Positions 6,257-52,091 of a stretch of DNA of 64,000 nt are shown here, piece after piece (positions within the stretch are counted from its first letter, which is position 1; every line of letters starts with the position of its first letter). The position numbers and the translations under genes are program-made. A model generated the notes under the pieces. It worked only from the letters and a program-made list of their open reading frames with translations. It was not told where the DNA came from and did no database searches. The DNA is from Trypanosoma brucei (Eukaryota), in assembly GCA_000002445.1 (NCBI GenBank), contig CM000207.1:1536001-1600000 (forward strand). The letters are read 5' to 3'.

Positions 6257-9200
6257 TTACTCACCGTCACGAGCGAGCAGCCGCTTGACAACGTAGCTAG
6301 TGATTGGCCAGAGTCGCTGCTGGTCTGCCTCACAAAGACTTGAAAAGCCTCGTATTGTCCCCGCGCAATATGATGAACCGCACAGGCAAACAAAAGGGCT
6401 GTTCATTACCCACTCTGTAGTACAATAGTTGAATGTAACCATTTCCCCTTTCGAAATTTCCCTCAGTGTCACAAACCGAAGTCTGGTCTTCTGTTCATTT
6501 ACCTCAACTTGCACATTCGGGTCACAGTGGTGAGCAATGCACTCCGCACCCTCACCAAAGAGAAGGTGCCTACTCTCACCCACACAAATGGTGTACATTG
6601 TGGGAAACGGGACAACAAATCCAGACACATCAAAAAGGACGACCCCCTTCTTGATGAATGTGCTTGCATAGGCCGTCTGGCCCATGTCTCCGTTCTGACG
6701 GATTTCAATTAGGGGTGATGTTGACTTAACAGTCCAGCCATCGCGCATGGCCTGCGCCCGCACGGGAGGTTCACACAAGTAAAGGTTTTGTTGCTTAGTG
6801 TCCTCTTCCATATGACAGAATCCGAGGCAATGCTGAGAGTACGCTCGAGGAAATAGTGGTTTCATATCATATACGAAGTAATTCATATTAACCGTTAATA
6901 GTTCACCCGCTTCAATGCTGCGCAGCGCCAGGAAGCGGCCTTCCACCAGCACGGTGTTCCCTTCCTCCTTATGTTGAATGATGTACCCATTTTCACCAAC
7001 TGCAACCTGTACTGGTTGAATGTCAATGTTCGTGCACTCCAATAGCACCGTTTTGCGCGCGACAGGGCTCACCGCGTATAACATTCTTGACTGATTGACA
7101 TCCAGGACGGGTGGTAGTCTTACAGACGCAGTTAAGCCGGCCAGTCGACGCATTGCAGGCGTAATGTACCTTTGAAGCATGGACCGCTGCGCGCTTGAAA
7201 GGAATTTGAACCCACGAATATTGTGCAAGCAGCTGGAACTATTACACTTACATTGGAACGGGCTGTGCAGCTCCCATTCTGTCGTCACGAAGTTCGCCGT
7301 CACGACCTCCCCGACGGCGATGTCTCTTATGGTTTCAAACTCTATCGCCTCATTTAAAGCATCCACGCGTATACAAGTGTTTGGATCGCAACTGTGGGAC
7401 ACGAACTGCGCACCGCCAGAGGGAAGGAGGTGTCTGCGTTCCCCCAGTTGCAACGTGAGAGGCGTTGGGAATGGCAAAGAACGTCCCTTTGTGGCGAGCA
7501 AGCGAGTGCCGGCCGCAACGCGAGTTTTGGCAATAACCTCCAAGCCGGCAGTGCAGCTGCGGAGTCCAATAAGCTGAGAGTCAGAGCGACTTGTGAAACC
7601 ATCCCGTATTGCAGCAGCGCGCACGTCCGGCTGCGCGAAAACGATTAGTGCCTCCTTATCTTGCTCATCCAACCATTTGAAACCTCGAACCTTGTGCGGC
7701 TGAGCAAAGCGGCAACACTTGCACTCGATCTCTTCTGGAAGCGAGTAGCTCAGGCAATTAAGGTTAACGTTTAGTTCATCACCGGCAGAAACAGTACGTA
7801 GCAGTACGACCCTCTTCTCAATGAGCGCCGCGGTTGGAGAGCAGTGGTGTTTGAGGCGAACTCCATCAATGTAAACGAAGTTGTCTAAAACTTCCACTGC
7901 TGAGTATTCGATGACGACTGTCCCTGCCACCATTTCGGTTGCCACATGTACCGTCCCCTCGTCGCATACCATAAGCCTTTTGGAAGCAATCTGTATCCAG
8001 GCACCTTTTGGGTTACTTTGAGTGTCCGCCACAAGGGACTTGATTGCTGTGGATGTCACGTTCCACAGCTTCTGACGCGCGTCATTGCCAAGGTGTTTAA
8101 ACCCCCCTATCCATCCGTAACATTTTTGCGATCCGCAGACACACATGAAAGGGTACTGCATATCCCATTCCGTCGTGAGGTAGTTAAATGATATGACCTC
8201 ACCTTTCCGAATATCTCGCAATGCAATGCACTCGATTGTCCTCGCAGTGTTGTCTGTAAGAACGCGTGTGTTTGGGTCGCAGCTGTGCGCAAGACACTGC
8301 GCTCCGCCACCAAAAAGAAGATGCCGCCTGTTGCTTAGAAGAATGGTATGCATAGTGGGAAAGGGTAAGGTAAGGCCATTCACGCGAAAGAATCGGGTTC
8401 CCTTTTTAATGTCAGACTTTGCGAATGTCGACTGCCCCATTTGCACATCCGCCTTCACTTCCACAAGTGGGGAAGAACTTTTAACGAGGAAACCATCCAA
8501 AACAGCGGCCTCTCGAACATGTGGGCTCGCACAAATCAGCTCAGCATTCTTCATCTCGTCAGTGAGGCCTTTGAAGCCGCTCACTTCTCCAACGCAGTGT
8601 TCTCCTTTGCAGTTGCACTTAAATGACGTAGTAGTGTAGCAAAGGTGGTTGATGTTGATTGTTACAGCTTCACCACGCAGCGAAGCCCGGCGAAGAACAA
8701 CACTTCGCCCCAGCAAAACAGCGTTGGCAAAGCACGAGTGCTTGACGCGTATATCATCCAGTGCAACCTCATCACCAATTACCTGAACGTCTGTGACGTT
8801 GAAGAGCTTAACCCCAGACGTCGTGTCACACATTAACCGAAGCTCCCCCGATGTCTCGTGAATAGAGATAAGCGAGTCATCAAGGGATGCCAACACACCA
8901 CGGCGTTGGCGCGAAAACATAGACTTCACTCCCCTTGCTGCGTGCGGCCACAAACGTAGTTGGGCCCTTGCGTCAAGATACCGAAAACCTCTGATAAGGC
9001 CATAGCAGTTAGCAGTACCACAGATGCACCTGAAGGAGGATGCTAACTCCCATTCAGTAGTGAGGTAGTCGTAAGTTAACATCTCGTCCAGTTTAATATC
9101 ACGCAGCGACAGGCAGTATCCGCTCTTTGTGGACCTGTCCATAACAACACGCAGGTTAGGTTCACAACTATGTGCGATGCAGCGTGCCTGATCCGTGAGA

Positions 9201-10606
9201 AAAAGATGCTCGTCATCCCCAACGAAAATTGTGTGTTTGGTTGCGAAGGGCAGTACCACGCCTCGCAGATCAAACACCTGTGTACCCTTGGGGATGAAGT
9301 CGCCGGCATAAGTTATTTCACCCATTGTTGGGTGCCTCCGTGTCACTGCCAGAGAATTACTGGAGCTCCAGGGACAGCCATTCTGCAGCGCCTCCAGAAA
9401 CACGGGCTGTTGTGTGAAAGGCAAGAGCTGCTTCTTTTCCTCATCACTGAGCCCACGAAACCCTCGAACGGTATTTGAGCATTTCGGGGAACCACATTTG
9501 CATTCGAAAGGCGCAGGAAGCTCATATTGAAGTGTGGAGAGGTTGAGAGAGAGTTGGTCCCCAGGTTGAAGCATCCGTAGCGACACAAGCCTGCCATCAA
9601 GAAGAACTGTATTGGCATCACAGCTGTGCGCAATGGACAAGCTGTCAATGACGACTCGGTGCGGGCGTATATCAAATCTGTCTACCTGCAACAGTACCGT
9701 GCCCGGTGGGACAAACTGCTGGGTGGCGATCTTACCATCAGAGGTCAAAGTAAGCACCGTTGACTTCTGCAGCCCAGCGAGTGATGCAGTTGGGGGAACC
9801 ACCGCACTGTGTCTCTCCTTGATGGCGGCACACACACTCGGCAATAGTTGCGCTTGCTGCTCTGATCCAAGGTGGCGAAATCCACGGATAATACCGTAGC
9901 ATGAAGTAGTCTTGCAGGCGCAGGAGAATGGATGCGCGATATCCCACTCGGTGCACAGGAAATTGCGTGTGAGTTGTTCTTCTTTTTCAATAGCTCGCGT
10001 AGCAACAGCGGATATGGTTGTTCCACTAATTTCAAGTTGAACGTTTGGTTGGCAAGAATGCCGGACGAATTCCACACAACAAGAGGGTCGCAAGTACTTC
10101 TTACCGGGTAGTTCAATTGTACCTTGTGCAGGGAACGGCAGAAGAAGCGCTGTACTAGTGAATACGATGCTTCCTGCTTCGTGACTGCAAGTTGCTAGGG
10201 TTGCAAAGCCAGAGTCTGGCTTCCGTACGATTTCCACACTCTTTTGGCAACAAGTGGCGATGAACCCGTCCGCAAGTGCCTGTTGGCGTACCTTCTCATC
10301 TGCGTAGGGAAATAAACGTTGTTGCTCGTCTTCTCTAGCGTTTTTGAAAGTAGAAGCAGCGGAGCCCTGAGGAAGCCTTGCGCCGTCATATATCACCAAA
10401 CAAGGGTTGACCACCACAAACTCATCTTTATTTATCTCCTGCGTGGCGATAAGGAAGTTATTAATGATGGTTGCGTTAAATTCTTCGCCTAGTGCTACGC
10501 GGCGTTCGTCATCCAGGACAAGTTCGCCGTTCCCAAATGTATAGTTTGTGGGAATAGGGCATATCACCTCACCGATCTTGAAGCAGAAATTGGCTTTCAT
10601 TACCAT
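6257..10606 (-). CDS. Multi-SET-domain protein: 1449 aa with nine tandem minimal SET+post-SET modules of about 145 aa. Five are canonical (HSCxPN ... F/YxYxTTEW ... CxCGxxxCxGxIRGF) and they alternate with four degenerate ones (H[SH]Cxx[AT] ... CKCxxxxCxxxVRGF).
   Basis: Repeated SET signatures VRHSCQPNVQLE, IAHSCEPNLRVV, LAHSCDPNTRVL, VSHSCDPNTCIRV and IAHHCDPNVQVEV. Each is followed by an ELTFDY-like motif (MLTYDYLTTEW, VISFNYLTTEW...) and a post-SET Cys cluster (CICGTANCYGLIRGF etc.). Between them are variant modules IAHSCDANTVLL / VKHSCFANAVLL / LKHHCSPTAALI, each with its own post-SET-like CKCGSPKCSNTVRGF. Confidence 0.8.
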   Translation of the reverse strand: MVMKANFCFKIGEVICPIPTNYTFGNGELVLDDERRVALGEEFNATIINNFLIATQEINKDEFVVVNPCLVIYDGARLPQGSAASTFKNAREDEQQRLFPYADEKVRQQALADGFIATCCQKSVEIVRKPDSGFATLATCSHEAGSIVFTSTALLLPFPAQGTIELPGKKYLRPSCCVEFVRHSCQPNVQLEISGTTISAVATRAIEKEEQLTRNFLCTEWDIAHPFSCACKTTSCYGIIRGFRHLGSEQQAQLLPSVCAAIKERHSAVVPPTASLAGLQKSTVLTLTSDGKIATQQFVPPGTVLLQVDRFDIRPHRVVIDSLSIAHSCDANTVLLDGRLVSLRMLQPGDQLSLNLSTLQYELPAPFECKCGSPKCSNTVRGFRGLSDEEKKQLLPFTQQPVFLEALQNGCPWSSSNSLAVTRRHPTMGEITYAGDFIPKGTQVFDLRGVVLPFATKHTIFVGDDEHLFLTDQARCIAHSCEPNLRVVMDRSTKSGYCLSLRDIKLDEMLTYDYLTTEWELASSFRCICGTANCYGLIRGFRYLDARAQLRLWPHAARGVKSMFSRQRRGVLASLDDSLISIHETSGELRLMCDTTSGVKLFNVTDVQVIGDEVALDDIRVKHSCFANAVLLGRSVVLRRASLRGEAVTININHLCYTTTSFKCNCKGEHCVGEVSGFKGLTDEMKNAELICASPHVREAAVLDGFLVKSSSPLVEVKADVQMGQSTFAKSDIKKGTRFFRVNGLTLPFPTMHTILLSNRRHLLFGGGAQCLAHSCDPNTRVLTDNTARTIECIALRDIRKGEVISFNYLTTEWDMQYPFMCVCGSQKCYGWIGGFKHLGNDARQKLWNVTSTAIKSLVADTQSNPKGAWIQIASKRLMVCDEGTVHVATEMVAGTVVIEYSAVEVLDNFVYIDGVRLKHHCSPTAALIEKRVVLLRTVSAGDELNVNLNCLSYSLPEEIECKCCRFAQPHKVRGFKWLDEQDKEALIVFAQPDVRAAAIRDGFTSRSDSQLIGLRSCTAGLEVIAKTRVAAGTRLLATKGRSLPFPTPLTLQLGERRHLLPSGGAQFVSHSCDPNTCIRVDALNEAIEFETIRDIAVGEVVTANFVTTEWELHSPFQCKCNSSSCLHNIRGFKFLSSAQRSMLQRYITPAMRRLAGLTASVRLPPVLDVNQSRMLYAVSPVARKTVLLECTNIDIQPVQVAVGENGYIIQHKEEGNTVLVEGRFLALRSIEAGELLTVNMNYFVYDMKPLFPRAYSQHCLGFCHMEEDTKQQNLYLCEPPVRAQAMRDGWTVKSTSPLIEIRQNGDMGQTAYASTFIKKGVVLFDVSGFVVPFPTMYTICVGESRHLLFGEGAECIAHHCDPNVQVEVNEQKTRLRFVTLREISKGEMVTFNYCTTEWVMNSPFVCLCGSSYCAGTIRGFSSLCEADQQRLWPITSYVVKRLLARDGE

Positions 10607-11415: not shown

Positions 11416-13881
11416 CTAATGGGGTGGCTCCGCGTTGAGGGCGCCACAAACAAGCGCTGCGCCGTGGCATCTACAATAGGCAGAACGTTCATTAGTTGTG
11501 TTAATGACTGATTGTGCCACCTTGCTGTGACGAAATGCGACGTGGAGCCGCATGGGGTTATCGGGATGAAAGTAAGTGAATACTACACTGAATGGCGTCC
11601 TAGAAAGGGCCGCCTGTACATAAACAGTCGGCATGGGGAACAGCACGGGCTCATTGACAATGTCTGCAGCGGAAGTTGACTCCATATCTCTGGGTTCCAC
11701 GAAAATGATCTCTGTCTCTAAGAGAAGCATGTTCATTGGCTTTCCAATTGGTACTACTTTTGAAGCTTTCCCAGGAGGTACAGCTACTTTTACAAGCTCG
11801 CAGCGAAACCGCGTTGTGGTACTTGATAGCCTGCCCACGGAGGCACCGACGCGGTGCTGAACTCCGTACTTCCTTAATCGAAGTATGAAACTGTCTTCTT
11901 GTTGCATCGTGTCATACAACATCCGGCGCACGCTTGCCCACATCATAAACTCTCTATCCTTCTGTTCTGTTGGACTGTGTGCAGCCCGGTGGTGGTACGA
12001 GACGAGGTCCCCAATCACCCCCTGCACATCAGCTAGCCGCTGCGGATGAGAAGTAAGTTGCCGCTGACAGCACAACCGCTCCGTTGAGGAGTAGCCACCA
12101 TACGGCAAAAGCGGAAGGAGCAGCGCCACCTCTCGGCCGAGTTTATCAAAGGAGTACTCCACGCGGGGCTCTGCCCCATTACATACGCGCTCCATCTCAA
12201 GAAAAAGGGTTTCGCAGGCCGACCGAAAGCAGTCTTTATTAGCCATTAATAAGCCCCGGTTCCCGCTGTTTTCATCGCTTCTACAATCCTTGCGACGAAT
12301 TAAGGTGTCGTAGTACGCCAGTAGCCGGCGCCTTAAAACTCCCTCGCAAAGGGACGCCAAAGCGACAGAAACTGTGCGCCGCTCTCGGGATTCTGGCACA
12401 AAAGTTTTTAGAAGGTTTAACGATAATTCGAACGCGGACAGTCGTGTCAACAGACTACACGTAATAAACCTGTAAAGTGCACCCACCAAACAAATACACC
12501 ACGGTTCCCGATGCGCGGTGCTTCCCATGCTGCTCTTCACATCCCTCAGGAACGTTTCATAGGACGGCAAAGCATCCACCGCCGTGCCCATACAACACTC
12601 TGCCGGGTCTTTGTCTCCGTCAAGCTGCTTCTTGGAGGGGGAAACCTCCACTTCGTTGTCGTCTCGGTTGCTGATTCGATCAGCAGTGCCGATTTCATTG
12701 CACAATCTCTCATCACTCATGTTTCCCCGCTCGTTGAATGCCCCAACATTCACGATCGCTCCAAGCAGGACAACACCAGCAGAGAGACAATGCATACACC
12801 CCTTACTAAGGATGCGCCCAAGTAAACACTCAGCGGGGTCTGAACCCTTAGGACCGAGCAGTCCGTCGAACAGCACTTGGTGGATCCTGTTTTCTTTCCC
12901 CAGGAGAAGCCACCGAGTAATCACACAGAGTGCAAGAGCGGGTTGCATAACAGGAGCGAATGCTGACCTCGTTACGGTTGAAGACTTCATTGGTGCCTCA
13001 ATCAAGGCCAGAAGAGGGTCAATGATTCCCGTCACCAGCGCAGGTCTGAGTTCCCTCTCCACAACCGTGGAAGACACCGCGAAGAGGTCGTTCACATAAA
13101 GTAAGTCATCCAACACATCCTCCGTCAGGCTTCTTATAGCGTCTACAGTGGGAAGTGGTGTTGCATCATCAGCATCACCAACGGCGTCGTGGTAGCGGTT
13201 CACTGCCTCCGAAAGTATCCCAATCTCAAGCCAAACATGTTTCGATATGATTCGAAGAATGTCTGGAAGGGCCTTCTCCATAAAAGACGTCAGAAACGTA
13301 CTCTGAAGCCGCGCAACGCTAATTACCACTTGCCTGGCGGCTCCACGGGCCATACGGTCGGACGTGTTGATCAGCTTGGCCGCGTAGTCAAACAAGGGGA
13401 ACACACCCAGCTGTCGGATGAAAAAGAATTGAACCGTGGTTTCATCACATCGCAGCGCAAGCGACTTCAAGAAAGATACATATACCGATAAAAGTTCATC
13501 GTCATTTTCATTCAGGTCAATGGATATCATCTTGTTAAGGTGATTTTTACTGCAGATATAATAAACGTTCTCCTTCATTGTAAGGTTGTGCAGCATCAAG
13601 GTAACAAAACGAAGCACCTCCGCTTTCACATTGGACGGTGACTCCACGTTTGTTACTATACTTTCCAGCGTGGTTATCATGTCTAGCTCAAGAAAAACAT
13701 CAAATGACGCATTGTTTTTTTTGTCGCCCCAGATTATCGCCTGTGCAAGCTCGCGCAAGATTTCAGAAATATTGTTGGTGGTGAAGGCTTGTGACTCATC
13801 TGTGGTTTTCAATGCCATACAGAGACGGCTGACATTTTCCTGAGAAAACTTTTCGTAGCTTTGGTTCTTAGCTTTCTGCAT
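11416..13881 (-). CDS. CLEC16A-like protein (FPL domain)
   Basis: The N-terminus ...LRELAQAIIWGDKKNNASFDVFLELDMITTLESIV... matches the CLEC16A FPL region (ILIWGDQNDSSVFDFFLEKNMF...). Downstream is YYICSKNHLNKMISIDLNENDDELLSVYVSFLKSLALRCDETTVQFFF, compared with NNYVNSII...DEEIMAYYISFLKTLSLKLNNHTVHFFY in CLEC16A. Confidence 0.8.
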   Translation of the reverse strand: MQKAKNQSYEKFSQENVSRLCMALKTTDESQAFTTNNISEILRELAQAIIWGDKKNNASFDVFLELDMITTLESIVTNVESPSNVKAEVLRFVTLMLHNLTMKENVYYICSKNHLNKMISIDLNENDDELLSVYVSFLKSLALRCDETTVQFFFIRQLGVFPLFDYAAKLINTSDRMARGAARQVVISVARLQSTFLTSFMEKALPDILRIISKHVWLEIGILSEAVNRYHDAVGDADDATPLPTVDAIRSLTEDVLDDLLYVNDLFAVSSTVVERELRPALVTGIIDPLLALIEAPMKSSTVTRSAFAPVMQPALALCVITRWLLLGKENRIHQVLFDGLLGPKGSDPAECLLGRILSKGCMHCLSAGVVLLGAIVNVGAFNERGNMSDERLCNEIGTADRISNRDDNEVEVSPSKKQLDGDKDPAECCMGTAVDALPSYETFLRDVKSSMGSTAHREPWCICLVGALYRFITCSLLTRLSAFELSLNLLKTFVPESRERRTVSVALASLCEGVLRRRLLAYYDTLIRRKDCRSDENSGNRGLLMANKDCFRSACETLFLEMERVCNGAEPRVEYSFDKLGREVALLLPLLPYGGYSSTERLCCQRQLTSHPQRLADVQGVIGDLVSYHHRAAHSPTEQKDREFMMWASVRRMLYDTMQQEDSFILRLRKYGVQHRVGASVGRLSSTTTRFRCELVKVAVPPGKASKVVPIGKPMNMLLLETEIIFVEPRDMESTSAADIVNEPVLFPMPTVYVQAALSRTPFSVVFTYFHPDNPMRLHVAFRHSKVAQSVINTTNERSAYCRCHGAALVCGALNAEPPH

Positions 13882-23989: not shown

Positions 23990-26900
23990 ATTTGCACCTT
24001 CTTACTATTTTTTTTTTATCTGTATGTTTGTCCGTATGGTTTGATTTCTTTTTCCCCTTCCCTCCGTAGGCACACCGGCTGAAAATTACAACGATAATAA
24101 AGTGGAGTAAAAAAAAAGAAAGAAAGTAAAGTCAGAAATTGGCCGCAATAATAATAATAACGAACAACAACAACAGCAACAAAAAAAAAATAATTAAAGA
24201 CAAAAACAACATATAACCATGGAAATTTTGGGACAGATGTAAAGAAAAGATATTTAAAAAATTAAATTAAAAAGAATAGCTCCACAAGGGAAGAATGCGT
24301 ATCAGAATAAAAGGTACACAATACCAATTCTCCTAACGGACGAAACCACATCAAAAACATTCCTCCCTCTCTCTCTTTCTCTCACATTTTATCCCAACTA
24401 ACACATAACATAACAATACGTAAAATATTGTACGACATTACGTAGTTGTGACACCTTTTCATGTTGTTGCGATGCTCGCAAAACTCCTATTGTTTTTTTT
24501 AAAAACATTATGCCATGATTTTTCCTTTCCTATCCTATCCTATTTATTTAATTATTTTTAAGTTGTTGCTTATCATAAGGTGATATTATTCCCTTTCAGG
24601 CGCATTCGACTCCTTCAGAAAAAAGAAAATGAAAAAGAAAGAATGTGAGTTCAGCAGTACAGGACGAAAGTAAGAGCACGCAGATAATTGAATTTATTTT
24701 TTTATTTTTAAAGAAAAATAATAATTGAGAAACTCAACGGTGAGATATTTTTGAACAAAAACATTTCAGTTGGAAATAAATTCGAAAGAGTTGTTCGTTC
24801 ATTTTCTTTTTTTTTCCTTTAAAATGACCTTTTTCGTGTTCCCCATTTTTAATTTCCTTCCTTCCACTGTTTTTCTTTTTTCCTTTTTCACTTATCTATC
24901 TAATTTTGATCTTCTTTAGGTTTACAACAAGCGGAAAGGAATTCACATGAGGAACACACTCCCCCCCCCCAATACACCACACACACACAAAAAAAAAAAT
25001 GTAAATGTAAATATCACGAGTTGAAAGCGGTTCCGCAATGGAGATTGTAAGAGGTGTAATTCCAATAAAACAGAACGAACCAAAGGGAAGTTTGAACGGT
25101 GTCCATACGGTGTTATTAATGTTGCTTTTATAGAATTTGAAAGTTAAATAAATAAATAAAAAGACGGAAGAGAAGTTGAAAGAGTTTTCTTTCCTTTTTT
25201 TTGTAAAAAAAAAAAGGAAAAAGAAGAAAAAGAACCACACTGGGGAGGTGGGCGACGGTGTTTTACTTTACTGTACCCCTTCCTGCTATTTATTCCCTTC
25301 ATTGTTCCTCTCATCACAGTTTGTAATAACGATAACAATAACAATACAAGTAAACATGATAATGATAAGTGAATCAATATCTCTTCTCAAATAATATTTG
25401 TGTACAAATAAAATTGATGAAAGCAAAAAGAAAAAAAAGAAGGGGAAAAAGAGGAAGAAAGAACCTATACAAGAGTCACCAGGTAGTAAAGCTTCAGTGC
25501 ATTCTTTTTGTTTTTTCTTCTTTTTTCTTTTCTTTTAAAAAAAAAAAACGCCGGAAAAAAAATGTTGTTGAGGTGACTTCCACATTTTTCATCGTTTTGT
25601 TCCCCCCCCCCCGTAATAGATAAAACACACACACACACACACTTTCCCCCGTCTGTTATATTTATTTATATAACTCCATTTGAACACTCGTTTATATGTG
25701 CCAATATCTTCTTTTTTTTTTTCTCGTCCTCTCTTCACTCCATATTTTGGTCCTCACACCGCCCCTCACCTTCTTCGTAGCAAAACTAAAAACAAAAAAG
25801 AAAAACAAAAAAAAAAATTTGGTTCGAAAATGAAAACTTAATTTAATTTAATTTAATTTGCAAAAACAAACAAACAATAAAGAGATAAACCCTTTTGGGC
25901 AGCATTATCGATGAGAATAATACTAATAATAGTAATAAGTTTTCTCATCAATATATGTAATAGCAGCGGAATATGATATAATGGTACAAAGCGAGTGCTG
26001 TATCATTTCAAAAAGTGAATATATATATATATATATATTTATAATGAAAAACAAAAACCGAAGAAAAATTAATGGCAACGTGTGACCTCTTAACCACTTT
26101 TCTTCATTTCACTCAAAACTTTCACTCATTTCTTCCCCCTCCTCCAATACATCCACACACAAGTGAAAATTAAAAAAAAAAAGAAAAAAAGAGGAAATAT
26201 ATATATAACGGATCAAATAAAGCAGCCAAACAGCACCAAAGAAAAGTAAAAAAGAAAAAAAAAGAATGTTTTATTTCATTATTACCTGCTGCCGTATCAT
26301 CCACCTCCTCTTATTTTTCTTTTTTACAATTTTCGTTCCTCTTACATGAGAGGTTGTTACACCGAAAGTATAAACAAAAAAAAAAGAAAGAGGGGTTTCT
26401 CTTTTGTGTGAAAATATAAATACGGAACGTCAAAAATAAATAATTCGATTGAAGCAAAGTGTTTGAAGGAGAAACAAAAACGAAAAGTAGAAAAAGCAGC
26501 ATTCATCCAATAATCCAAAAAGCGTTTTTGTATAAGTCAGAAGAGAACAGAAACTGGGAAAATAACTGTTTGTTTTTTTTTTTCCTTTCTTCTCCTTTTC
26601 AATTATATTCTATTAAAATGTTGTTATTGTCAAAGTTCCCTTTTTTTTTTATAGAAAAAAATTTCCATCAGTACAAATGCAAAATGACAACGGCAACATC
26701 ACGAACAGACACCCAAAGGAGGAAAATTGTGATCGGTTAAAAATGCGATGAAAATTAAAAAAAAAAATTCTCCCACTCTGTTTTCTTTACTTTCTTCTTC
26801 TTCTCGTCACGCCTTTTAAAAAAAAAAAAGAACTATTGGTGTTTGCTCTTTTCTAATAATAATAATAATTATTATTATTATTTTGGTTTATATTCCCCAC

Positions 26901-27164
26901 TACTTCTTTATATTCATTCACTCATTTTTATTACCTCCCCCTTATTATAATAATTAGTATTATTATTATTATTATTATTTGCCTCCTCTTTGTGGTGCAT
27001 TTGTAATTGCAAGTAGCCAACACCACCACCACTACCACCCTTCTTTTTTTTTTCCTTCTTTTTTTCCCCCTTTTTTTTTGTTTCCACCAGTTTGTGTAAG
27101 TTCCAGTTCCCTCATGCAATATTTTTCCCAGACATATTTTTCTTTTCTCTTTCTTTTGTCAAAC

Positions 27165-27198
<34 letters not shown>

Positions 27199-29866
27199 AA
27201 ATATGTGCTTGAGCATTTGGATACCGCGTGCAGTGGACAAAACAGCGCTAATGTTACAACTAAGGAAAAGTTGGAACGCATTGAGGGGAGGAAAAAAAAA
27301 TTTTTTTTTTTAAAAAGGAAGAAACCGCAATAAATAAATAGATAAATGGAGATTGTTTTTTTTTTCCTCCTGCTTTAAAAATCATTCACTTGAAAATTTA
27401 AATGCGTGCTCGTGTGCGCTGAGAAGCAAAAAGAAAAACAAAAAAAAAAGAAAAGAAACAGATTAATTTTTTTTTTAAAAAAATGAGAACTAGTGGAAGA
27501 AGAGGAGAATAAAAAGGGACGAGGGAGTATAAATTAAACAGAAATAAATTGTTGATTCATGCTGAAAGACAAAAAAAAAAAGAGGGAAAAGAGGACCGAG
27601 CAATACGCGTGTAGAATTTATACACAGCATACATAAATATAAAACCAGTACAAAAATAAACATAATGACAAAAATAACTGTAGCAATAAAAGCAATCACC
27701 ATCATATTCAGTTGTGACTTCAGCAAAATTATTACGTTCTTCTCTTTTTTTTGTTTTTCCTCCATTTTATTCGTTGCTTTGTTTTACATTTCTTTGTTAC
27801 ATTCTTTTTCTTTTCTCCCTCTAACGGTTACCGTGTCCGTTACCTTTAAAAAGAGGAAAAGAAATCAAAAAAAAAAAAGTTGAAAGAAACCGCAAACGAA
27901 GTCAAGACATTTATAACCAAAGAAAAAAAAATGAAACTTTTTTTTTTTAAAAAAAAGATAGGTACCACTAGCACTGGAAGTATAGAATAAAAAATATATA
28001 AAATACGTAGCACTATTCATTTTTCCTTTTTTTTATTCTCATAATAATCAAAAATAAACAATAATTTTCTTCTCACTTTGTAACGAGAAGAAAGAAGAAA
28101 AAAAAAAACAAAATCGCCCCACAGTTCATCCATAATGGAATGGATGGTAATAAAAGGGGCTGCAGTAAAAAGAAAAGGAAAAGAAAAGAAGAAAACAAAA
28201 CAAAACAAAAAAGCAAATTTAATATAACTTCCCCATGATTCCTTTTTTTTCCCCCTTTTCTTTATTTCTTTATTTGATTTTGTTTTGCCACACGCAATTC
28301 CTCATTTTACTTTCCTTCTCCCATTTCCTTCTTTTCATCATTTGTATTCATTAATGAAAGTTTAATGAATACAAAAGCGTAAAAAAAAAATAAATAAATA
28401 AGAAACAAGAGATTAAAAAAAAACAAAGAAGGGGAAAGGAAAGGAAAGGAGAGGAGAGGAAAAGAAATGCAACAAAATAAATAAATTCGTAACAAAGAAA
28501 GTAAAAAAAAAAGGAAACCACGTACTAAAAGAGACGTCACTAACACCACTGTCAATAAATAAGCACAAAGATATAAAACTATATAGTGAATATATATATA
28601 TATATAGGTATATACAAATATACATATGACCAAAAAGGAGAGGGGAAGAAAAGAAAACAGCAGAAAAATAATATAAAAGAAAAAAAAATTTTAATGCGTG
28701 CACGCGCGAAAACAAAACAGACGAAATGGAAAAAAGAAAAAGGAGCCAAGAGTTCTCTGGGAATAAAGTTCCAAAATCTTCAGCAGCGAAAAAAAAAAAG
28801 AAGCAGGAATGACGGAAGGAGACCGCCTCAATGCTTCATCTCTACACACTAATAAACGGTGACTTTTTTTTTAAAAAAAATTACTCTTGTGTATTCTTTT
28901 CAATTAAGTCTTTGTGTAGGATAAATAAATACGTGCGGAATATATGTTTATTTTGCGTATAATTATGCTGCTGAATTTACTCTACCCCCACTTCGCTTCA
29001 CTCGCTATTTTTCCAGTCTGTATTTTATTTCATAGTACCTTTGCCCCTCCTTTTTTTTAAAAAAAAGGGTCATCTGCTTTTAGCTTTCTCGCGTTTTTTT
29101 TAAAAAATTTTATTTCCTCTCAGTTTCTAATTTTTTCCCCTCCTTTCTTCTTCTTCTATACATTTGTTTTTAATCCTTCCCTATTTGTGGCATTACTGCA
29201 CATTTTCCTTTATATATTTTCCCCTTTAAACTAATCCTGTTTGCTTGTTGTTGTTGTTGTTTTTTTTTTTTACCACCTGAATAGATCATCGTTCGATGGT
29301 GAGCCCATTACTTCGCACTATCAAAAAAATGCCACTAAAAAACCAGCAAGGAAAAAAAATTAACAACAGGGGCACGCCACAGTATTTTAAAATATATTCA
29401 CATAATTTTCCTTCATTTTTTCCTTTCCCGTTTCTTTTTTTTTTAAATTCTCTCACACTGCTCGTCTCAGTTCGTCAATTTTTTTTTTCGCTCTTCTTTC
29501 CATTTAACTCCTTTTTTTTTTACTTTTCCTCCTCCCTTTTTTCTTTTTTTATTTCTAACATGCCACACCTCTCAAACGGCTATGATTATCATTGTGATTC
29601 TCTCCTTTTTACTATACCATCTTCATAAATGGAACAAAACAAAACAAAAAAAGTGAAAATAGTGAAGTAACGAAAAAAAAAAGTAAAAAAAGAATGAACT
29701 GACTTTCACATCATCATATGTACTTGAAGCATGAACCATTTTGCCTTTTTTTTTTTGCATTGTCTCTTTCTCTTTCTCTTTGCCAAGGGCCTTCATGTGA
29801 AGAAATGTTTTTTTTTCCTTCTTCTTCTTCTTTCTTTCTTTTTTTTTTACTTTTTTTTTTTCCACA
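23990..29866. repeat. Gene-free ultra-low-complexity A/T tract of about 5.9 kb: homopolymer A and T runs, (TA)n, (TAA/ATT)n, (GAAA)n-like. Every ORF in it is a poly-K/F/L artefact.
   Basis: Direct inspection shows alternating A-rich and T-rich blocks, for example 24111-24190 and 25191-25230 (A-rich) and 26560-26660 and 29480-29560 (T-rich), with sparse G/C. No coding-like ORF is present. Confidence 0.8.
24081..24210 (-). promoter_or_regulatory. Extended polypyrimidine tract (mRNA sense) upstream of the Sm gene; a likely SL-acceptor and polyadenylation-coupling region at the distal end of the A/T tract
   Basis: + strand gtaaaaaaaaagaaagaaagtaaag...aataataataataacgaacaacaacaacagcaacaaaaaaaaaa. 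Confidence 0.4.
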
Positions 29867-30244
29867 TCACTTGGCTACCCACTCATTAGGGTCCTCACCA
29901 TGAGAGAATCGACAGTTGCGGCGGTTGCAACGACTTCTTAAATGATGTCTGCAAAGGGAAGACGGAGACACCTTCGAATTCCCTGCTGCCGGTTCCACTG
30001 AAGCCTCCTTCGTGTAACCATCGCCACTCGTCCCAAGGAGTAGAACAGTAGTCGACAGATTATTGTTAGGCATCATAAGCGGCCGCACCACCGGCGGGAC
30101 GGGAACCGCAGCCCACATGTAAACGCATTGAGGAACGACTGGAGATGTTTGTGGTGGGGTTGGGGGAAGCGGGTTATACATCATGGGTGCCGCAAGAAAG
30201 AACGGTTGTGTCGGCTGAGGTTCTGCTGCACTGGGGAAGATCAT
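29867..30244 (-). CDS. Small CCCH zinc-finger protein (ZFP1-like), with a proline-rich N-terminal half (NPLPPTPPQTSP) and a single C-terminal C-x7-C-x4-C-x3-H finger. The likely start is the internal MMYNP (about 105 aa).
   Basis: C-terminal CRHHLRSRCNRRNCRFSH, preceded by a Pro-rich region. Its 3' end abuts the 5.9-kb A/T tract. Confidence 0.6.
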   Translation of the reverse strand: MIFPSAAEPQPTQPFFLAAPMMYNPLPPTPPQTSPVVPQCVYMWAAVPVPPVVRPLMMPNNNLSTTVLLLGTSGDGYTKEASVEPAAGNSKVSPSSLCRHHLRSRCNRRNCRFSHGEDPNEWVAK

Positions 30245-41981: not shown

Positions 41982-43469
41982 TTAATCGCTGTCATCGAAC
42001 CTTGTGGTATTACGGTTATTGTCGAAAGAAGGAGATGGCCGACCAAAGCCACGGCCTCCACGGTCCCCAAAGCCACGGCCTCCACGATCCCCAAAGCCGC
42101 GGCCTCCACGGTCCCCAAAGCCACGGCCTCCACGATCCCCAAAACCGCGGCCTCCACGGTCCCCAAAGCCACGGCCTCCACGATCCCCAAAGCCACGGCC
42201 TCCACGGTCCCCAAAGCCACGGCCTCCACGATCCCCAAAACCGCGGCCTCCACGATCCCCAAAACCACGGCCTCCACGATCCCCAAAACCACGGCCTCCA
42301 CGATCACCAAAGCCGCGGCCTCCACGATCACCGAAATCACGGCCTCGGCCGCGACCCCGTCCGTTTCCATTTTCATTTCGAATAAACTTTCGAACAGGCT
42401 CGTCTTCCCCCTCCTCGTCATCACCAATGGATCGCTTACCATTGGCATTCTGCTGCACCTCTTCTCCATCACTGTCAGACTCTGGCATAGGTTTCTTGGG
42501 AGCAACCTTTGGTGATGCTTTCACTGGTTTACGCACGGGCTCATCATCATCACTGTCAGACTCTGGCATAGGTTTCTTGGGAGCAACCTTTGGTGACCTC
42601 TTAGCTGGTTTACGCACGGGCTCATCATCATCACTGTCAGACTCTGGCATAGGTTTCTTGGGAGCAACCTTTGGTGACCTCTTAGCTGGTTTACGCACGG
42701 GCTCATCATCATCACTGTCAGACTCTGGCATAGGTTTCTTGGGAGCAACCTTTGGTGATGCCTTCACTGGTTTACGCACGGGTTCATCATCATCACTGTC
42801 AGACTCTGGCATAGGTTTCTTGGGAGCAACCTTTGGTGATGCTTTCACTGGTTTACGCACGGGCTCATCATCATCACTGTCAGACTCTGGCATAGGTTTC
42901 TTGGGAGCAACCTTTGGTGATGCCTTCACTGGTTTACGCACGGGTTCATCATCATCACTGTCAGACTCTGGCATAGGTTTCTTGGGAGCAACCTTTGGTG
43001 ACCTCTTAGCTGGTTTACGCACGGGCTCATCATCATCACTGTCAGACTCTGGCATAGGTTTCTTGGGAGCAACCTTTGGTGATGCCTTCACTGGTTTACG
43101 CACGGGCTCATCATCATCACTGTCAGACTCTGGCATAGGTTTCTTGGGAGCAACCTTTGGTGATGCTTTCACTGGTTTACGCACGGGCTCATCATCATCA
43201 CTGTCAGACTCTGGCATAGGTTTCTTGGGAGCAAACTTTGGTGACCTCTTAGCTGGTTTACGCACGGGCTCATCATCATCACTGTCAGTTTTATCTCGAA
43301 TATTCTTCGGTGCAGCAATGAGAGCCGAGAACTTCAGACCCCGGCCCGCCTTTTCCACTGAGGGATTACTTGCTTTCAAAGCATCCGCAGCTTCGATGTA
43401 GTTCGACTCTCTCAGATATCGGTATACCTGGGCATCAAGCTCATCTTTTGGAAGACGTAACACAGACAT
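41982..43469 (-). CDS. Nopp140-like nucleolar phosphoprotein. It has an N-terminal LisH-like motif, ten 29-aa acidic/basic repeats (DSDDDEPVRKP[VA]K[AR]SPKVAPKKPMPES) and a C-terminal GRGRGR + (FGDRGGRG)x13 RGG domain.
   Basis: N-terminus MSVLRLPKDELDAQVYRYLRESNYIEAADALK (LisH-like, as in Nopp140). Alternating Ser/acidic (CK2-site-like SDSDDDE) and Lys/Pro basic blocks. The C-terminal RGG repeats are like those of trypanosome Nopp140-like/NoLP proteins. Confidence 0.75.
   Translation of the reverse strand: MSVLRLPKDELDAQVYRYLRESNYIEAADALKASNPSVEKAGRGLKFSALIAAPKNIRDKTDSDDDEPVRKPAKRSPKFAPKKPMPESDSDDDEPVRKPVKASPKVAPKKPMPESDSDDDEPVRKPVKASPKVAPKKPMPESDSDDDEPVRKPAKRSPKVAPKKPMPESDSDDDEPVRKPVKASPKVAPKKPMPESDSDDDEPVRKPVKASPKVAPKKPMPESDSDDDEPVRKPVKASPKVAPKKPMPESDSDDDEPVRKPAKRSPKVAPKKPMPESDSDDDEPVRKPAKRSPKVAPKKPMPESDSDDDEPVRKPVKASPKVAPKKPMPESDSDGEEVQQNANGKRSIGDDEEGEDEPVRKFIRNENGNGRGRGRGRDFGDRGGRGFGDRGGRGFGDRGGRGFGDRGGRGFGDRGGRGFGDRGGRGFGDRGGRGFGDRGGRGFGDRGGRGFGDRGGRGFGDRGGRGFGDRGGRGFGRPSPSFDNNRNTTRFDDSD
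42040..42350. repeat. About 13 copies of a 24-bp tandem repeat (ccacggcctccacg(a/g)tccccaaag) coding FGDRGGRG (RGG box)
   Basis: Direct periodicity in the sequence. The antisense frames are open only because of the repeat. Confidence 0.9.
42460..43290. repeat. Ten near-identical 87-bp tandem repeats coding the 29-aa Nopp140-like unit. Two sequence variants (KPVKASPK / KPAKRSPK) are interspersed.
   Basis: The period is visible directly: ctgtcagactctggcataggtttcttgggagcaacctttggtga[tgc(t/c)ttcac|cctcttagc]tggtttacgcacggg(c/t)tcatcatcatca. Confidence 0.9.
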
Positions 43470-44561: not shown

Positions 44562-47500
44562 TTAGCTGAATTGAAGCGCTGTTTCAACACACTCCTCCAA
44601 CCACGCAAACCCCTGAATGACAGCGACTTTTTTGAGCGCCTGAAGCTGAGTGTGGATTGGCTTTGCCTTTCCCACGAGAGGCCCACAACATGTTTGATTG
44701 ATAGAGTTTGCTGTGACCTCGTGACACTTACCACAAACAAAGTCCTGCTTTGTATAGCTCATTACCAGTGTGTTTACTTTGCGTACGAGGTAAGACTCGA
44801 CGGCGGAGGCGAATATGGGGGCACTGCATCCATTGCAGCGCATTCGTTTCTCCCGAATGCTCAGATCAAGAAGAACATCTGCATTACAAAAGCTACATTG
44901 AAACATCAGCTGGTGGCAATCGGTGTCTGCATCAGCAGTAATCTGTGCCAGTGGAGAGAAGGGACTCACCCCACACAGCCTCAGACAGTTATTTCGTACC
45001 TTTCCCAAAACCCCGTCGTTGGGGAACAGTTCCAATAGTCGACAAACCACCTTTGTGTACTCCAGTGCGACCGCAGCACCTGTTAGAGTTGTCTCACCAG
45101 CTGGGAACCCCTTTTCATGGAGATCCTTCCGCTCCGTGAGGTCGTGAACCTCCTCAATAAGTTCGGTGTGAAGTTTTCCTTCAACCAACTTCTTGTAAAC
45201 GCCAACTATCCTCGTAAGAATTTGTTCATTTTTTGTCGCCAACACGACTGTTGGATCCTCTTGAACCTCGACAAGCACGCTCTCCCGCGCCAACGCTATC
45301 GCGCGCAAGGTCCCCTCTATTCGAACCAATAAGATGTCCCTAACCTTTTTTGGCAGCTTACTCCATATGGTGAAGGAGTACTCAACTAGCATCTCGTCTA
45401 ACACCACCTGATCTTTCTCTTTTAGAGATTTGCATCCTTCGCTCGTGACATACAAAAATACGTAGTCCCGCTTGTCAAGAATGACAAACGGGCACCAGTA
45501 ACGAATCGGTTTCAGGGACAAGAGGAGGAGCATCGGCTGGTCCTTTAAGGAATCCACCATGAATCGTGCGAAGCTCACCGTATCTTGAATGGTGTGCTTC
45601 GGAGTCAGAACAACGATGGAGTCACCATCTACCTTCACCGTACGACCACCAAGCTTCGCAAGGCTAAATAAGACAGTTGTCAGTGCACGGTGTGCCAGCG
45701 TACTCACCAACTCTAACAGCCGCGGCTCGTAACATGATGAAACGGGGTCCCGAATCCACCGAGAGAAGCTAGCGAGAAGAACATCTGCTACAGCGTTGGT
45801 TCGCACTTGACCCAACAAATCCGAGACGAGATCTCGCAGTATGTTAAAGTGTGTGGTTACACCTTGGTTGCACAGAGCATGGGCATTAGGGTCATCGCCT
45901 TCTTGAATCAACTGTGAGAACAACACGGCGACCACATCGAGCCGCGCCAAACTAAACTCAACGCCCCACGAAAGGTAACCACCGGGCATGACAACCTGCC
46001 GCGGTCGCTCCTCTATGGAATCGAAGGCGATAGATACATCACGCGAGTTCCATAAGACATGGGCACGAGCATGCAGTGCTCTCGTGAAGAGCACATCCCA
46101 AGCATGGACACTCGTGTCTTGCATCAGATTGCATAGAGGGATACGGGAGAGGCGACTAAATGAGATGCGCTCCTCTACCCAAAGTAGAGATGCACAATAG
46201 CGCTGCAGCAGCCTCCGTGCGAGTAACCGTGTCCACCGGAATGGATCAGAAAGCAGGCGTTCATCCTCCGCTGCACCAAGGATACGGAGATATGGGAGTG
46301 ATGACGGAAGGCAACGTTGTTCAATAAGTTGCGTCGTAGTGATACTACTTTCAAGGACAGCAAACAACGGTGAGCCCCCTCCTTCCATCACTCCATTTAG
46401 TGAGCGATAGACGAGTCGCCACGCATTTTCGGTATCTGCGACGACCTCCCACGTCACATCCAGCGGAACCTCAGTACTGTTGAGAGACTGTGCTGCCTCA
46501 AAGAACAATGTTCTCCAATTTATTGTTGGGGCAGGCGCCGAGGCTGGTTGAATTATAGCTACGAAAGCAGTATGATCGAAGTGGTTCACAAGCCCAATTA
46601 TGCCGCGGGTGTCGGAAGCGACGTGAAAAAGAAATACAAAACGGTTAGACGAATTTTGGAGGTAATTTCCGGTGGGGACACTCGTAAGTTCATCTACGCT
46701 AAAAGTCCCTCTTGCATATGGTCTCTGCCTCGCGTTTCGCAGATAATCGTCAACTAAAACGTTCGCACAGCACCCGATTTTTTCAATCATCACCTCAGCT
46801 CGTGTAATGTGATCCTCATAAACCATGTGGACATCCTCTCGTCCTGTGAGTAATCCATTCAGCATTCTTTCGCCCTCTCGACCCGGAGGTAAATCAACAT
46901 GCAACAGGTTTGTCGAGCTTCGACTTCGAGGTAAAACAAGCGCATTGGTAACAGGTTTCGCGGAGGGTAAAAATGCATTATGATCGGCATCAACAACAAT
47001 GCGCCGTGGAACAATGCACCGGAAGGTGTAGAGGGTTTTATCCAGAGCTGCGATAACCGCCACCGTACCGTCGTCAGCTTTGTCCGTTCGTATTTCCATG
47101 ATATGCCAGGTTGTCGATAGTGCTTTAGTTTTCACATCAATGAAGTGGCTGCTAGTTGGCTGTCCATCCGCTGTGAGTAACTCACTTTCTTTCATCATTT
47201 GTCGGCGTAACGTAGCGCGACGTGTCCACGCTTGCTTCTGCAGCTTCAACCAAGCCCCCACACGTGCATCTGCGAAGAAAGCGGCATCCATAGGGTGGTT
47301 GCTGTTCGGTGCAAAATACTTGGACTTTAGCATTTCAACATCCTCAATTTCATGTAACTCTGCCTCACGCACAAGGCGGTATCCCTCATCGTCAGACACA
47401 TTAACGATACTAGCAACGTCCGAGTCAGTACCTTCGCTTTCTTGAAGGTAGTAAACATCGCCGTTAACCACCCCTGCAGAACCATTCTTCTTACGACGCA

Positions 47501-51302: not shown

Positions 51303-51314
51303 TAATAGCGGTGC

Positions 51315-51348
51315 CAAGAACAAGAAAAACAAAAAAAGAAAGAGGTAA
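51315..51348 (-). promoter_or_regulatory. Polypyrimidine tract (mRNA sense), the putative trans-splicing (SL addition) signal upstream of POLE
   Basis: + strand aagaacaagaaaaacaaaaaaagaaagagg lies immediately 5' (in gene sense) of the MNCS/MPPP start codons. Confidence 0.5.
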
Positions 51349-52091
51349 GTATTTTGGAAGAGCTGCAGATTGTCCGGCAAAACCCACACCTTTCGTTCAA
51401 GAATTTTTGTATCGAGGGGGGGAAGTTGAGGTGGAAAAAAGTGAGAGATCGTCCATCTATGGATGGACGAACCAGTTGAAATGGTTAAATGGGTCGTGAA
51501 CACAGGACAGTGAGAGTTAGTTGAACGAAACCGCGGAAAACAAAAAAAAATCAAAGGTGATGACTCTTTTAAAGAACCCCTCGCACAGTGATGTGCCACC
51601 ACGAACTCATCAGCTAACGTAAAAACGGGTTGATGCAACAAATTGGGTAGATCTTATAATATTTCTCCACCTTAGCAATGCACAGCGCACCGACAAGGTA
51701 CATGGGTTAAGATTATAGCTTCCATGGCAAACTGACGAGGCGTCTCTTCCTCCTCTTGTCTGCCTGCGTGGACCCACCCGTGACAACACACGGGCAGGGA
51801 AATCAGCATCCGCCAACTTAACCGAGATGAAAAATACACAACACATCCAAATGATGTGTCTGCACACTATTGGTGCCACAGAACGCACACAACTGCTCAC
51901 CGCAGTACCGTGCAAACAGGGGAGAAAATTTTTTTTAAAAAAGAAAAACGAAAATTAGGGGGAGAATGCACTGTAATACCCACACGCTCAAGGTACACCA
52001 CCGGCTGGTTCCTCCAGGTAGGTTCAAGTTAGCGTGTGGTGTCTCTCTTCACTTTCTATAGTGAGTAGCTACCTGCGTGCAGTCTCTGTGT

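Follow-up and report, generated by a model that had tools for sequence, protein, structure and literature searches.

SET28 of Trypanosoma brucei, a predicted array of five pseudo-SET/SET units related to a bacterial methionine methyltransferase

What could a protein that strings many SET domains together in one chain be doing, and what would it methylate? The question is raised by one gene in a 64,000-nucleotide stretch of Trypanosoma brucei DNA (GenBank assembly GCA_000002445.1, contig CM000207.1, positions 1,536,001 to 1,600,000 of the forward strand; the whole stretch is called the window below). SET domains are almost by default read as histone or protein lysine methyltransferases, and most of the approximately 29 to 40 SET proteins listed in trypanosomes are unstudied. 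An open reading frame (ORF) on the minus strand at window positions 6257 to 10606 had been interpreted, from the sequence alone, as nine SET modules that are alternately canonical and degenerate, and the ORF listing confirms a coding sequence of 1449 aa plus a stop codon at this place. Its product is 100 % identical to Q38DZ4_TRYB2/XP_827306.1 (T. brucei TREU927 and T. equiperdum), and the exact protein was found in three Trypanozoon genomes. The gene, Tb927.9.10100, was already annotated and tagged, and appears as SET28 in Table S1 of a survey of chromatin factors by Staneva et al. (PMC8559703). Our analysis suggests, with confidence somewhat above even, that SET28 is cytoplasmic, occurs throughout the kinetoplastids and consists of five tandem units, each a degenerate SET module (B) followed by an intact one (A), and that it would act as an S-adenosylmethionine (SAM)-dependent methyltransferase with five sites and built-in pseudo-enzyme partners.

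Pfam matched its SET family (PF00856, class V methyltransferases) to five stretches of SET28 (E 6.6e-44) and found only SET; AWS/pre-SET and chromatin-reader domains were not found by this search, and a weak match to SAF (19.1 bits, cut-off 21, no stretch assigned) was dismissed as noise. NCBIfam held no model for SET28 or for two of its single-domain relatives. Self-BLASTP gave no internal matches, and module alignments and profile comparisons were used instead. Delimiting the modules at the conserved xRGFxxL motifs gave five A and four B modules in strict alternation, and the motifs lie where the original prediction had put them. Pairwise identity is 31-48 % among A modules and 20-31 % among B modules. 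The SET nature of the B modules was not detected by Pfam, and was recognized by aligning the B profile with the A profile in HHalign (probability 99.5 %, E 2.6e-23), where B shows a gap over the LPFPTxxTI...HLL segment. Residues 1-100, to which the original prediction assigned no module, in turn matched the B profile (probability 98.5 %, E 2.2e-15), and a B-module hidden Markov model (HMM) built for this analysis matched residues 12-76. Because the N-terminal 100 residues match in this way, SET28 comprises ten modules rather than the nine claimed, in the order B0-A1-B1-A2-B2-A3-B3-A4-B4-A5, or 5 x (B-A). When aligned with 16 single-domain relatives, the approximately 25 residues past each GFxxL prove to be the helical tail of the preceding domain; in the boundaries below, this tail is counted as the start of the following module. 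All lie on the minus strand of the window.

10307 to 10606, minus strand, aa 1-100: B0, truncated and most degenerate pseudo-SET by HHalign and the B HMM, lacking His-x-Cys and the Cys cluster
9869 to 10306, minus strand, aa 101-246: A1, complete SET and post-SET with HSCQPN, CACKTTSC and IRGFRHL; the active-site aromatic residue is Phe in T. brucei and Tyr in 12 other species
9449 to 9868, minus strand, aa 247-386: B1, pseudo-SET with HSCDAN, Tyr replaced by Leu, four Zn Cys present
8975 to 9448, minus strand, aa 387-544: A2, complete SET and post-SET with HSCEPN, TYDY and CICGTANC
8564 to 8974, minus strand, aa 545-681: B2, pseudo-SET with HSCFAN, Tyr replaced by Ile, four Zn Cys present
8090 to 8563, minus strand, aa 682-839: A3, complete SET and post-SET with HSCDPN, SFNY and CVCGSQKC; the best match to BurB (see below) among the modules
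7670 to 8089, minus strand, aa 840-979: B3, pseudo-SET with HHCSPT, Tyr replaced by Leu; C962, C964 and H971 with C922 form a likely Cys3His Zn site
7199 to 7669, minus strand, aa 980-1136: A4, complete SET and post-SET with HSCDPN and CKCNSSSC; Phe in T. brucei and Tyr in 12 other species at the active-site aromatic position
6803 to 7198, minus strand, aa 1137-1268: B4, pseudo-SET without a Zn site, with QHKEEGN, Tyr replaced by Met, and LGFCHM
6335 to 6802, minus strand, aa 1269-1424: A5, complete SET and post-SET with HHCDPN, TFNY and CLCGSSYC; the best-conserved module, 68 % mean identity across species
6257 to 6334, minus strand, aa 1425-1449: C-terminal helical tail of A5, matching the tail of single-domain relatives, and stop codon

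The map refines several features ascribed to the modules. The HSC[QED]PN core attributed to all five intact modules is present in A1 to A4, and A5 has HHCDPN instead; the post-SET Cys cluster said to persist in the four degenerate modules does so in B1 and B2, but B3 has C-x-C plus a His and B4 has lost it; and the [IV]RGF[KR]xL motif that was to close every module generally does, with the exception of LGFCHM in B4. At the DNA level the repeat has a period of 864-891 nt, or 288-297 aa. The copies are only 60-74 % identical, and are thus not nucleotide-identical, as had been noted; an assembly artifact or a recent duplication was rejected on these grounds, and the duplication is an ancient one.

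The alternation raises the question of whether A and B modules have been maintained for different reasons. Thirteen full-length trypanosomatid orthologues (from Trypanosoma, Leishmania, Leptomonas, Lotmaria and others; 1444-1510 aa) were cut by module, profiles were built, and residue positions were tabulated for each module over the 13 species, which are the basis of all species counts given here. The reference was BurB of Burkholderia thailandensis (PDB 9l4t/9l4v), a SET-domain methionine S-methyltransferase that makes S-methylmethionine from Met both in vivo and in vitro and whose ligand contacts are known from crystal structures (PMC12542666). The modules are positionally orthologous and nearly invariant in length. 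Cross-species identity is highest in A5 (68 %) and A3 (58 %), and the B modules, at 42-47 %, are on a par with A1, A2 and A4. In A1 to A5 the residues corresponding to His93, Cys95, Pro97, Asn98 and Thr73 of BurB, together with the three post-SET Cys, are kept in 11 to 13 species, mostly in all 13, and the catalytic Tyr124, like the SAM-contact His and the four Zn Cys, is kept in 12 or 13 species in every A module. In B0 to B4, this Tyr is replaced by Leu, Ile, Val or Met, and a loop of approximately 15-20 residues is lost; in BurB that loop carries Arg70, His72 and Thr73 and touches both substrate and SAM (PMC12542666). A1 to A5, B1 and B2 have all four Zn Cys in every one of the 13 species, whereas B3 combines three Zn Cys with a conserved His (H971) and the site is gone from B4 and B0. 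These data show that the catalytic, SAM-binding and Zn residues of the A modules are under strong conservation and that the B modules, which keep the fold, also evolve under purifying selection. Set against the decay of the B sites, the preservation of the A sites points to selection that acts in A on catalysis or, at a minimum, on SAM binding. Of the alignment columns, 29 are identical in every A module of every species and only 3 are strictly position specific, so the five A sites look alike rather than specialized, and the idea of five different specificities or substrate pockets was dropped.

If the A modules are conserved for catalysis, to which enzymes are they related? A phmmer comparison of SET28 with BurB (9l4t) gave E 4e-15 over aa 724-848, and BurB, which is 35 % identical to A3, is the best PDB match to A and B modules alike. 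The structural neighbors ranked after it are lysine methyltransferases such as Schizosaccharomyces pombe Set7, SMYD, MLL and NSD/SET2. BurB shares with the A modules an xHSCxPN core lacking the canonical Asn, the active-site Tyr, S/T-T-E, a CxCx4C post-SET, I-x-G-x-K-x-L and a helical tail. From the list of BurB contacts (the Arg42/Ala44 loop, Arg70, His72, Thr73, His93, Tyr124, Arg133 and His138), the A modules retain Thr73, His93 and Tyr124. Two family-specific motifs, PTxYT and TTEW, have been kept from the bacterial to the kinetoplastid members; they coincide with, or adjoin, the positions at which BurB grips the amino-acid backbone of its substrate. The A modules belong to a BurB-type minimal SET family whose sole characterized member methylates free methionine. 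There are also differences: BurB is a single 172-aa domain, encoded in a bacterial biosynthetic gene cluster, that is dimeric in its crystals and tetrameric in solution and contacts Met through the main chain (PMC12542666), whereas SET28 is eukaryotic and has ten domains per chain, half of them dead. SET28 lies outside the usual setting of BurB-type clusters, in which a single homo-oligomer of about 170 aa is encoded with dimethylsulfoniopropionate (DMSP) or secondary-metabolite genes (decarboxylase, transaminase, dehydrogenase). No solved chain matching more than one SET28 module was found in the structure comparison, and no described multi-SET family of this kind was found in the searchable literature; the impression that the architecture was an unrecognized one therefore holds. 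The SET domains of histone methyltransferases (NSD1, SET2/SETD2, ASH1L and MLL/KMT2) share with SET28 the fold and the post-SET Zn cluster, but their similarity is weaker than that of BurB, and SET28 differs from them in lacking AWS/pre-SET, reader domains and the NHxC Asn and in being cytoplasmic and undetected on chromatin.

Closer relatives than BurB exist as single domains. Hundreds of such proteins, of 150-190 aa, occur in bacteria (Stellaceae, Vicingus, Parcubacteria and Cyanobacteria), archaea (Woesearchaeota) and protists. Along the entire domain their identity to A3 is 30-48 %, and they share PTxYTIQ, HSCDPN, FNYxTTEW, CxCGSxxC, IxGFKxL and the tail; unlike SET28, they have one domain and no pseudo-SET partner, and some are fused to enzyme domains. 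The PGAP name carried by some, "SET domain-containing protein-lysine N-methyltransferase," is automatic, and the genomic contexts of two of them (P0048 and P0069) were uninformative. A bacterial protein (P0072, L007:1294-2961) joins a SET domain that is 45 % identical to A3 (E 1e-31) to a pyridoxal phosphate (PLP)-dependent decarboxylase of the ornithine/diaminopimelate/arginine type; its gene adjoins a lipid-A acyltransferase gene and a weak match to a family-3 solute-binding protein. The pairing of methyltransferase and decarboxylase in this protein recalls BurB and BurI of DMSP synthesis. In P0101 a BurB-type SET domain is fused to a small-molecule methyltransferase of the NNMT/PNMT/TEMT family, P0146 and P0155 combine a D-Ala-D-Ala-ligase-type ATP-grasp domain with two SET domains, and the remaining fusion partners among the closest relatives include GNAT acetyltransferases and a cupin. 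The partners come mostly from families of amino-acid or small-molecule metabolism, with the qualification that GNAT and ATP-grasp enzymes can also modify proteins. "Lysine methyltransferase" is no better supported as a label than "amino-acid or amine methyltransferase."

When 1.84 billion representative proteins were searched with a profile built from sixteen B-A units, 6394 proteins passed E <= 1e-3 and 1835 passed E <= 1e-10, and A and B domains were mapped on the best 150 with our own HMMs. Two other searches with the stand-alone B-A alignment were unproductive: a word-indexed search returned only the alignment's own members, and a tblastn scan of prokaryotic genomes found nothing, the derived patterns probably being too strict. 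Among the matches examined, the pseudo-SET alternation was confined to kinetoplastid proteins, stand-alone B-A ORFs and GNAT-B-A fusions. Bodo saltans has the start of the array, B0-A-B-A, in a partial gene with clear orthology of B0, A1 and B1, and Trypanoplasma (Cryptobia) borreli has a B-A-B-A transcript that ends in a B4-A5-type unit; with an HMM specific for B4, orthologous modules were recognized both in T. borreli and among metagenomic proteins. A metagenomic contig (L010) encodes a complete ORF of 1150 aa (ATG, TAG, and a stop 3 codons upstream) with eight modules, B0-A1-B1-A-B-A-B4-A5. The gene upstream of it (L010:98-1012) is colinear with the FPL-domain gene that precedes SET28 (BLASTP E 8e-6), and because this gene order is conserved the eight-module protein is a syntenic SET28 orthologue with four units, from a distant kinetoplastid-like organism. 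Kinetoplastid orthologues exist, and their module number, a point put up for checking with the original prediction, does differ between lineages, eight against ten.

Complete stand-alone B-A ORFs were found in P0036 (306 aa) and P0032 (327 aa), the only candidates bounded by upstream in-frame stops; their B half lacks the Tyr. P0029, P0173 and P0174 were rejected as B4-A5-type C-terminal fragments of longer proteins, T. borreli P0021 is probably another such fragment, and P0031 was not accepted since its ORF is open to the contig edge. In the GNAT-B-A fusions (P0033, L001:130-1695; P0044, L002:5001-6662; and P0045), which are 520-580 aa long, an N-terminal RimJ/RimL-like Acetyltransf_3 domain precedes a single B-A unit. 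The contigs have 66-71 % GC, and L002 appears to derive from a eukaryote with kinetoplastid-like gene packing because genes for a proteasome ATPase and a ubiquitin E2 lie on the same strand as the GNAT-B-A gene. The stand-alone ORFs, the GNAT-B-A fusions, the B0-A1-B1 start in Bodo and the syntenic eight-module orthologue together show that B-A has been inherited as an evolutionary unit. The earlier proposal that an active/pseudo pair had been amplified is supported by the stand-alone units and the four-unit orthologue, but the order is B-A rather than A-B, and the multiple five rather than 4.5. Tandem arrays of related domains also occur in other lineages. A Mesostigma viride protein of 1415 aa (P0028; EukProt EP00899_P008598) has four consecutive SET domains with a period of about 170 aa, a D-Ala-D-Ala-ligase-type ATP-grasp domain and a fifth SET domain, and Balamuthia mandrillaris KAL6053339.1 has two A-type domains (A-A), both with the Tyr and CxCx4C. 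All domains of the Mesostigma protein keep all motifs, and neither protein shows the pseudo-SET alternation of SET28. These arrays look like independent amplifications, and tandem amplification of the minimal SET domain has therefore occurred more than once.

The arrangement of the modules in space was addressed with an AlphaFold2 model of B2-A3-B3-A4 (592 aa, from the 13-sequence alignment), which has a mean predicted local distance difference test score of 88.2 and a predicted template modeling (pTM) score of 0.77. Because a far lower pTM would be expected for four domains on flexible linkers, a fixed interdomain geometry, and hence a rigid array, is predicted. Nearly all indels over the 13 species are of 1-5 residues, and the sole large one falls between B0 and A1. 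The few multiresidue indels inside the array lie in A-to-B junctions, and the indel map thus hints that B-to-A is the tighter junction and B-A the compact unit.

Published data place the protein in the cytoplasm. YFP-tagged SET28 was found in the cytoplasm of bloodstream forms, the TrypTag localization given with those data for procyclic forms is likewise cytoplasmic, and SET28 is absent from the list of proteins positive by chromatin immunoprecipitation sequencing (ChIP-seq) (PMC8559703). In RNA interference target sequencing (RIT-seq) it falls in class 1-1-1-1, that is, no significant fitness loss in any RNA interference (RNAi) experiment. In the literature searched, we found no published assay for Tb927.9.10100 and no paper discussing it beyond the chromatin-factor survey; TbSETD, a mitochondrial SET protein described in a preprint, was considered as the same gene and rejected, as it is Tb927.9.11350.

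Taken together, these observations suggest a mechanism in which five similar SAM-dependent methyltransferase sites would be held in a rigid array, with each B module serving as the permanent structural partner of the adjacent A module. Where BurB and similar single-domain relatives assemble as dimers or tetramers, B may take the place of the second subunit. There is a precedent for such pairing in the same group of organisms, where S-adenosylmethionine decarboxylase (AdoMetDC)/prozyme and PRMT1 ENZ/PRO each combine a catalytically dead paralogue with its live counterpart (PMC6221367, 10.1101/776112). Those pairs are separate polypeptides whose activation has been shown biochemically; in SET28 the dead and live partners are paralogous domains of one chain that recur five times, and activation is proposed by analogy. 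SET28 could thus be a covalently fused form of the trypanosomatid prozyme-enzyme arrangement. The acceptor would be a side chain of a protein or peptide or, about equally likely, a free amino acid or amine, each falling a little short of an even chance.

Several observations weigh against this five-site methyltransferase. T. brucei is the sole species of the 13 with Phe in place of the active-site Tyr in A1 and A4 (RNF and ANF versus xNY), and activity at two of the five sites might consequently be lowered or altered. Lysine methyltransferases can be more sensitive to an exchange of this Tyr for Phe than BurB is. BurB Y124F retains >60 % of its activity, and Y124A is dead (PMC12542666). The A modules do not conserve Arg133 and His138, which contact SAM in BurB, and at His72 they mostly have Tyr; the Asn of the canonical NHxC motif is replaced, the last being true of BurB as well. 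Given the RNAi result, any activity of SET28 is dispensable in culture. Finally, a contact of B with the following A, rather than of A with the following B or none, is read from domain order, stand-alone units and indel positions.

The nature of the acceptor divides the two strongest alternatives. SET28 could be a multivalent or processive protein-lysine methyltransferase whose A sites act on a protein of the cytoplasm, such as one with a repetitive, oligomeric or polymeric build, a reading we hold to be possible but short of probable. Nearly all characterized SET enzymes methylate protein side chains, lysine methyltransferases follow BurB among the structural neighbors, the A modules retain the active-site Tyr, a rigid array with five similar sites would suit a multivalent substrate, and the RimJ/RimL-type GNAT partners can be protein modifiers. 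Against this, the closest characterized relative by both sequence and fold acts on free methionine, the family is fused to a PLP amino-acid decarboxylase and an NNMT/PNMT/TEMT methyltransferase, PTxYT and TTEW sit at or beside the backbone-holding residues of BurB, and the lysine methyltransferase name of the relatives comes from a pipeline. Much of the same evidence, together with the cytoplasmic location, the 45 % identity between A3 and the decarboxylase-fused SET domain, and the ATP-grasp, cupin and GNAT fusions, speaks for a BurB-type methyltransferase of free amino acids or amines in which the array merely raises catalytic capacity or stability; we give this, too, somewhat less than an even chance. 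The fusion partners come from distant organisms and point to function by association only, BurB is a more distant member of the family whose main-chain contacts leave specificity unreadable from sequence, and metabolic enzymes are not usually built as rigid arrays of five sites. We know of no methylated metabolite in trypanosomatids that would require such an enzyme. A more specific version, in which SET28 is a fused pentamer of prozyme-enzyme pairs, each B completing or activating its BurB-type neighbor, with five sites that methylate a free amino acid or amine and with the number of units tuned between four and five during kinetoplastid evolution, is rather unlikely as a whole.

Two further readings fare less well. 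The SET folds could be purely structural or binding modules of a noncatalytic scaffold or reader, as in some SET-fold subunits of large assemblies, and both the absence of a fitness phenotype and the clear inactivity of half of the modules are consistent with this. The A sites, however, are preserved across Trypanosoma, Leishmania and monoxenous trypanosomatids while the same residues have decayed in the B modules of the same chains, and we consider a scaffold improbable. The idea of a methyltransferase for histones or chromatin, implied by the generic annotation "SET domain," draws on the Pfam matches and on similarity to the SET domains of ASH1L, MLL and SETD2 (E 1e-6 to 1e-2), but is very improbable for a protein that is cytoplasmic in both life stages, gave no ChIP-seq signal, shows neither AWS/pre-SET nor chromatin-reader domains in Pfam and resembles BurB more than it does any histone methyltransferase. 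The lysine methyltransferase or methyl-lysine scaffold of the original prediction is, in the form given there, unsupported in view of the BurB-type family, the small-molecule fusions, the cytoplasmic location and the lack of a ChIP-seq signal.

The remainder of the window offers context. SET28 lies in a polycistronic array with a phosphatidylserine decarboxylase gene and an FPL-domain gene as its neighbors, and gene order in a eukaryotic array of this type carries no pathway meaning for SET28. Three other features, all on the minus strand, were recorded.

11416 to 13881, minus strand: FPL-domain (PF09758) gene, directly upstream of SET28
41982 to 43469, minus strand: 495-aa ORF for a repetitive protein, with two tandem arrays at 42043-42346 and 42467-43288
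44562 to 51641, minus strand: very long ORF, 2359 aa as listed from TTG, in the same transcription direction as SET28

The arrays in the 495-aa ORF consist of 12.7 copies of 24 nt and 10.1 copies of 81 nt, with 91-93 % matches, and a long ORF on the opposite strand (42004 to 43401, plus strand) is probably a by-product of the repeats. A block of 6 kb at 24000-30000 has a GC content of 0.28-0.35, compared with approximately 0.45-0.51 elsewhere, and is rich in homopolymers and low-complexity sequence; it contains no ORF of at least 200 aa, no tandem array at a TRF score of at least 80 and no Rfam family. All large ORFs of the 64-kb window are on the minus strand, and this block is therefore not an obvious strand-switch region.

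In the literature searched we found no description of an architecture of ten modules, of B modules derived from SET domains, of the additional N-terminal module, of a number of units that varies, of the stand-alone B-A proteins or of the affiliation with the BurB family and its small-molecule fusion partners. SET28 is unusual on three counts at once, namely, ten SET folds in one chain, a strict alternation of dead and seemingly live modules, and membership of the BurB-type family. Comparison of the Bodo and trypanosomatid proteins indicates that the alternation has been conserved since before the bodonid/trypanosomatid split. With no fitness phenotype in culture, SET28 is not an obvious drug target. 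If the pseudo-SET modules are indeed built-in activators, SET28 would extend the prozyme principle of trypanosomatids to a new enzyme class, in a fused and repeated form. If the acceptor proves to be a small molecule, a family of >1800 relatives in bacteria, archaea and protists would be wrongly named "protein-lysine methyltransferases," and SET28 would be a eukaryotic small-molecule SET methyltransferase.

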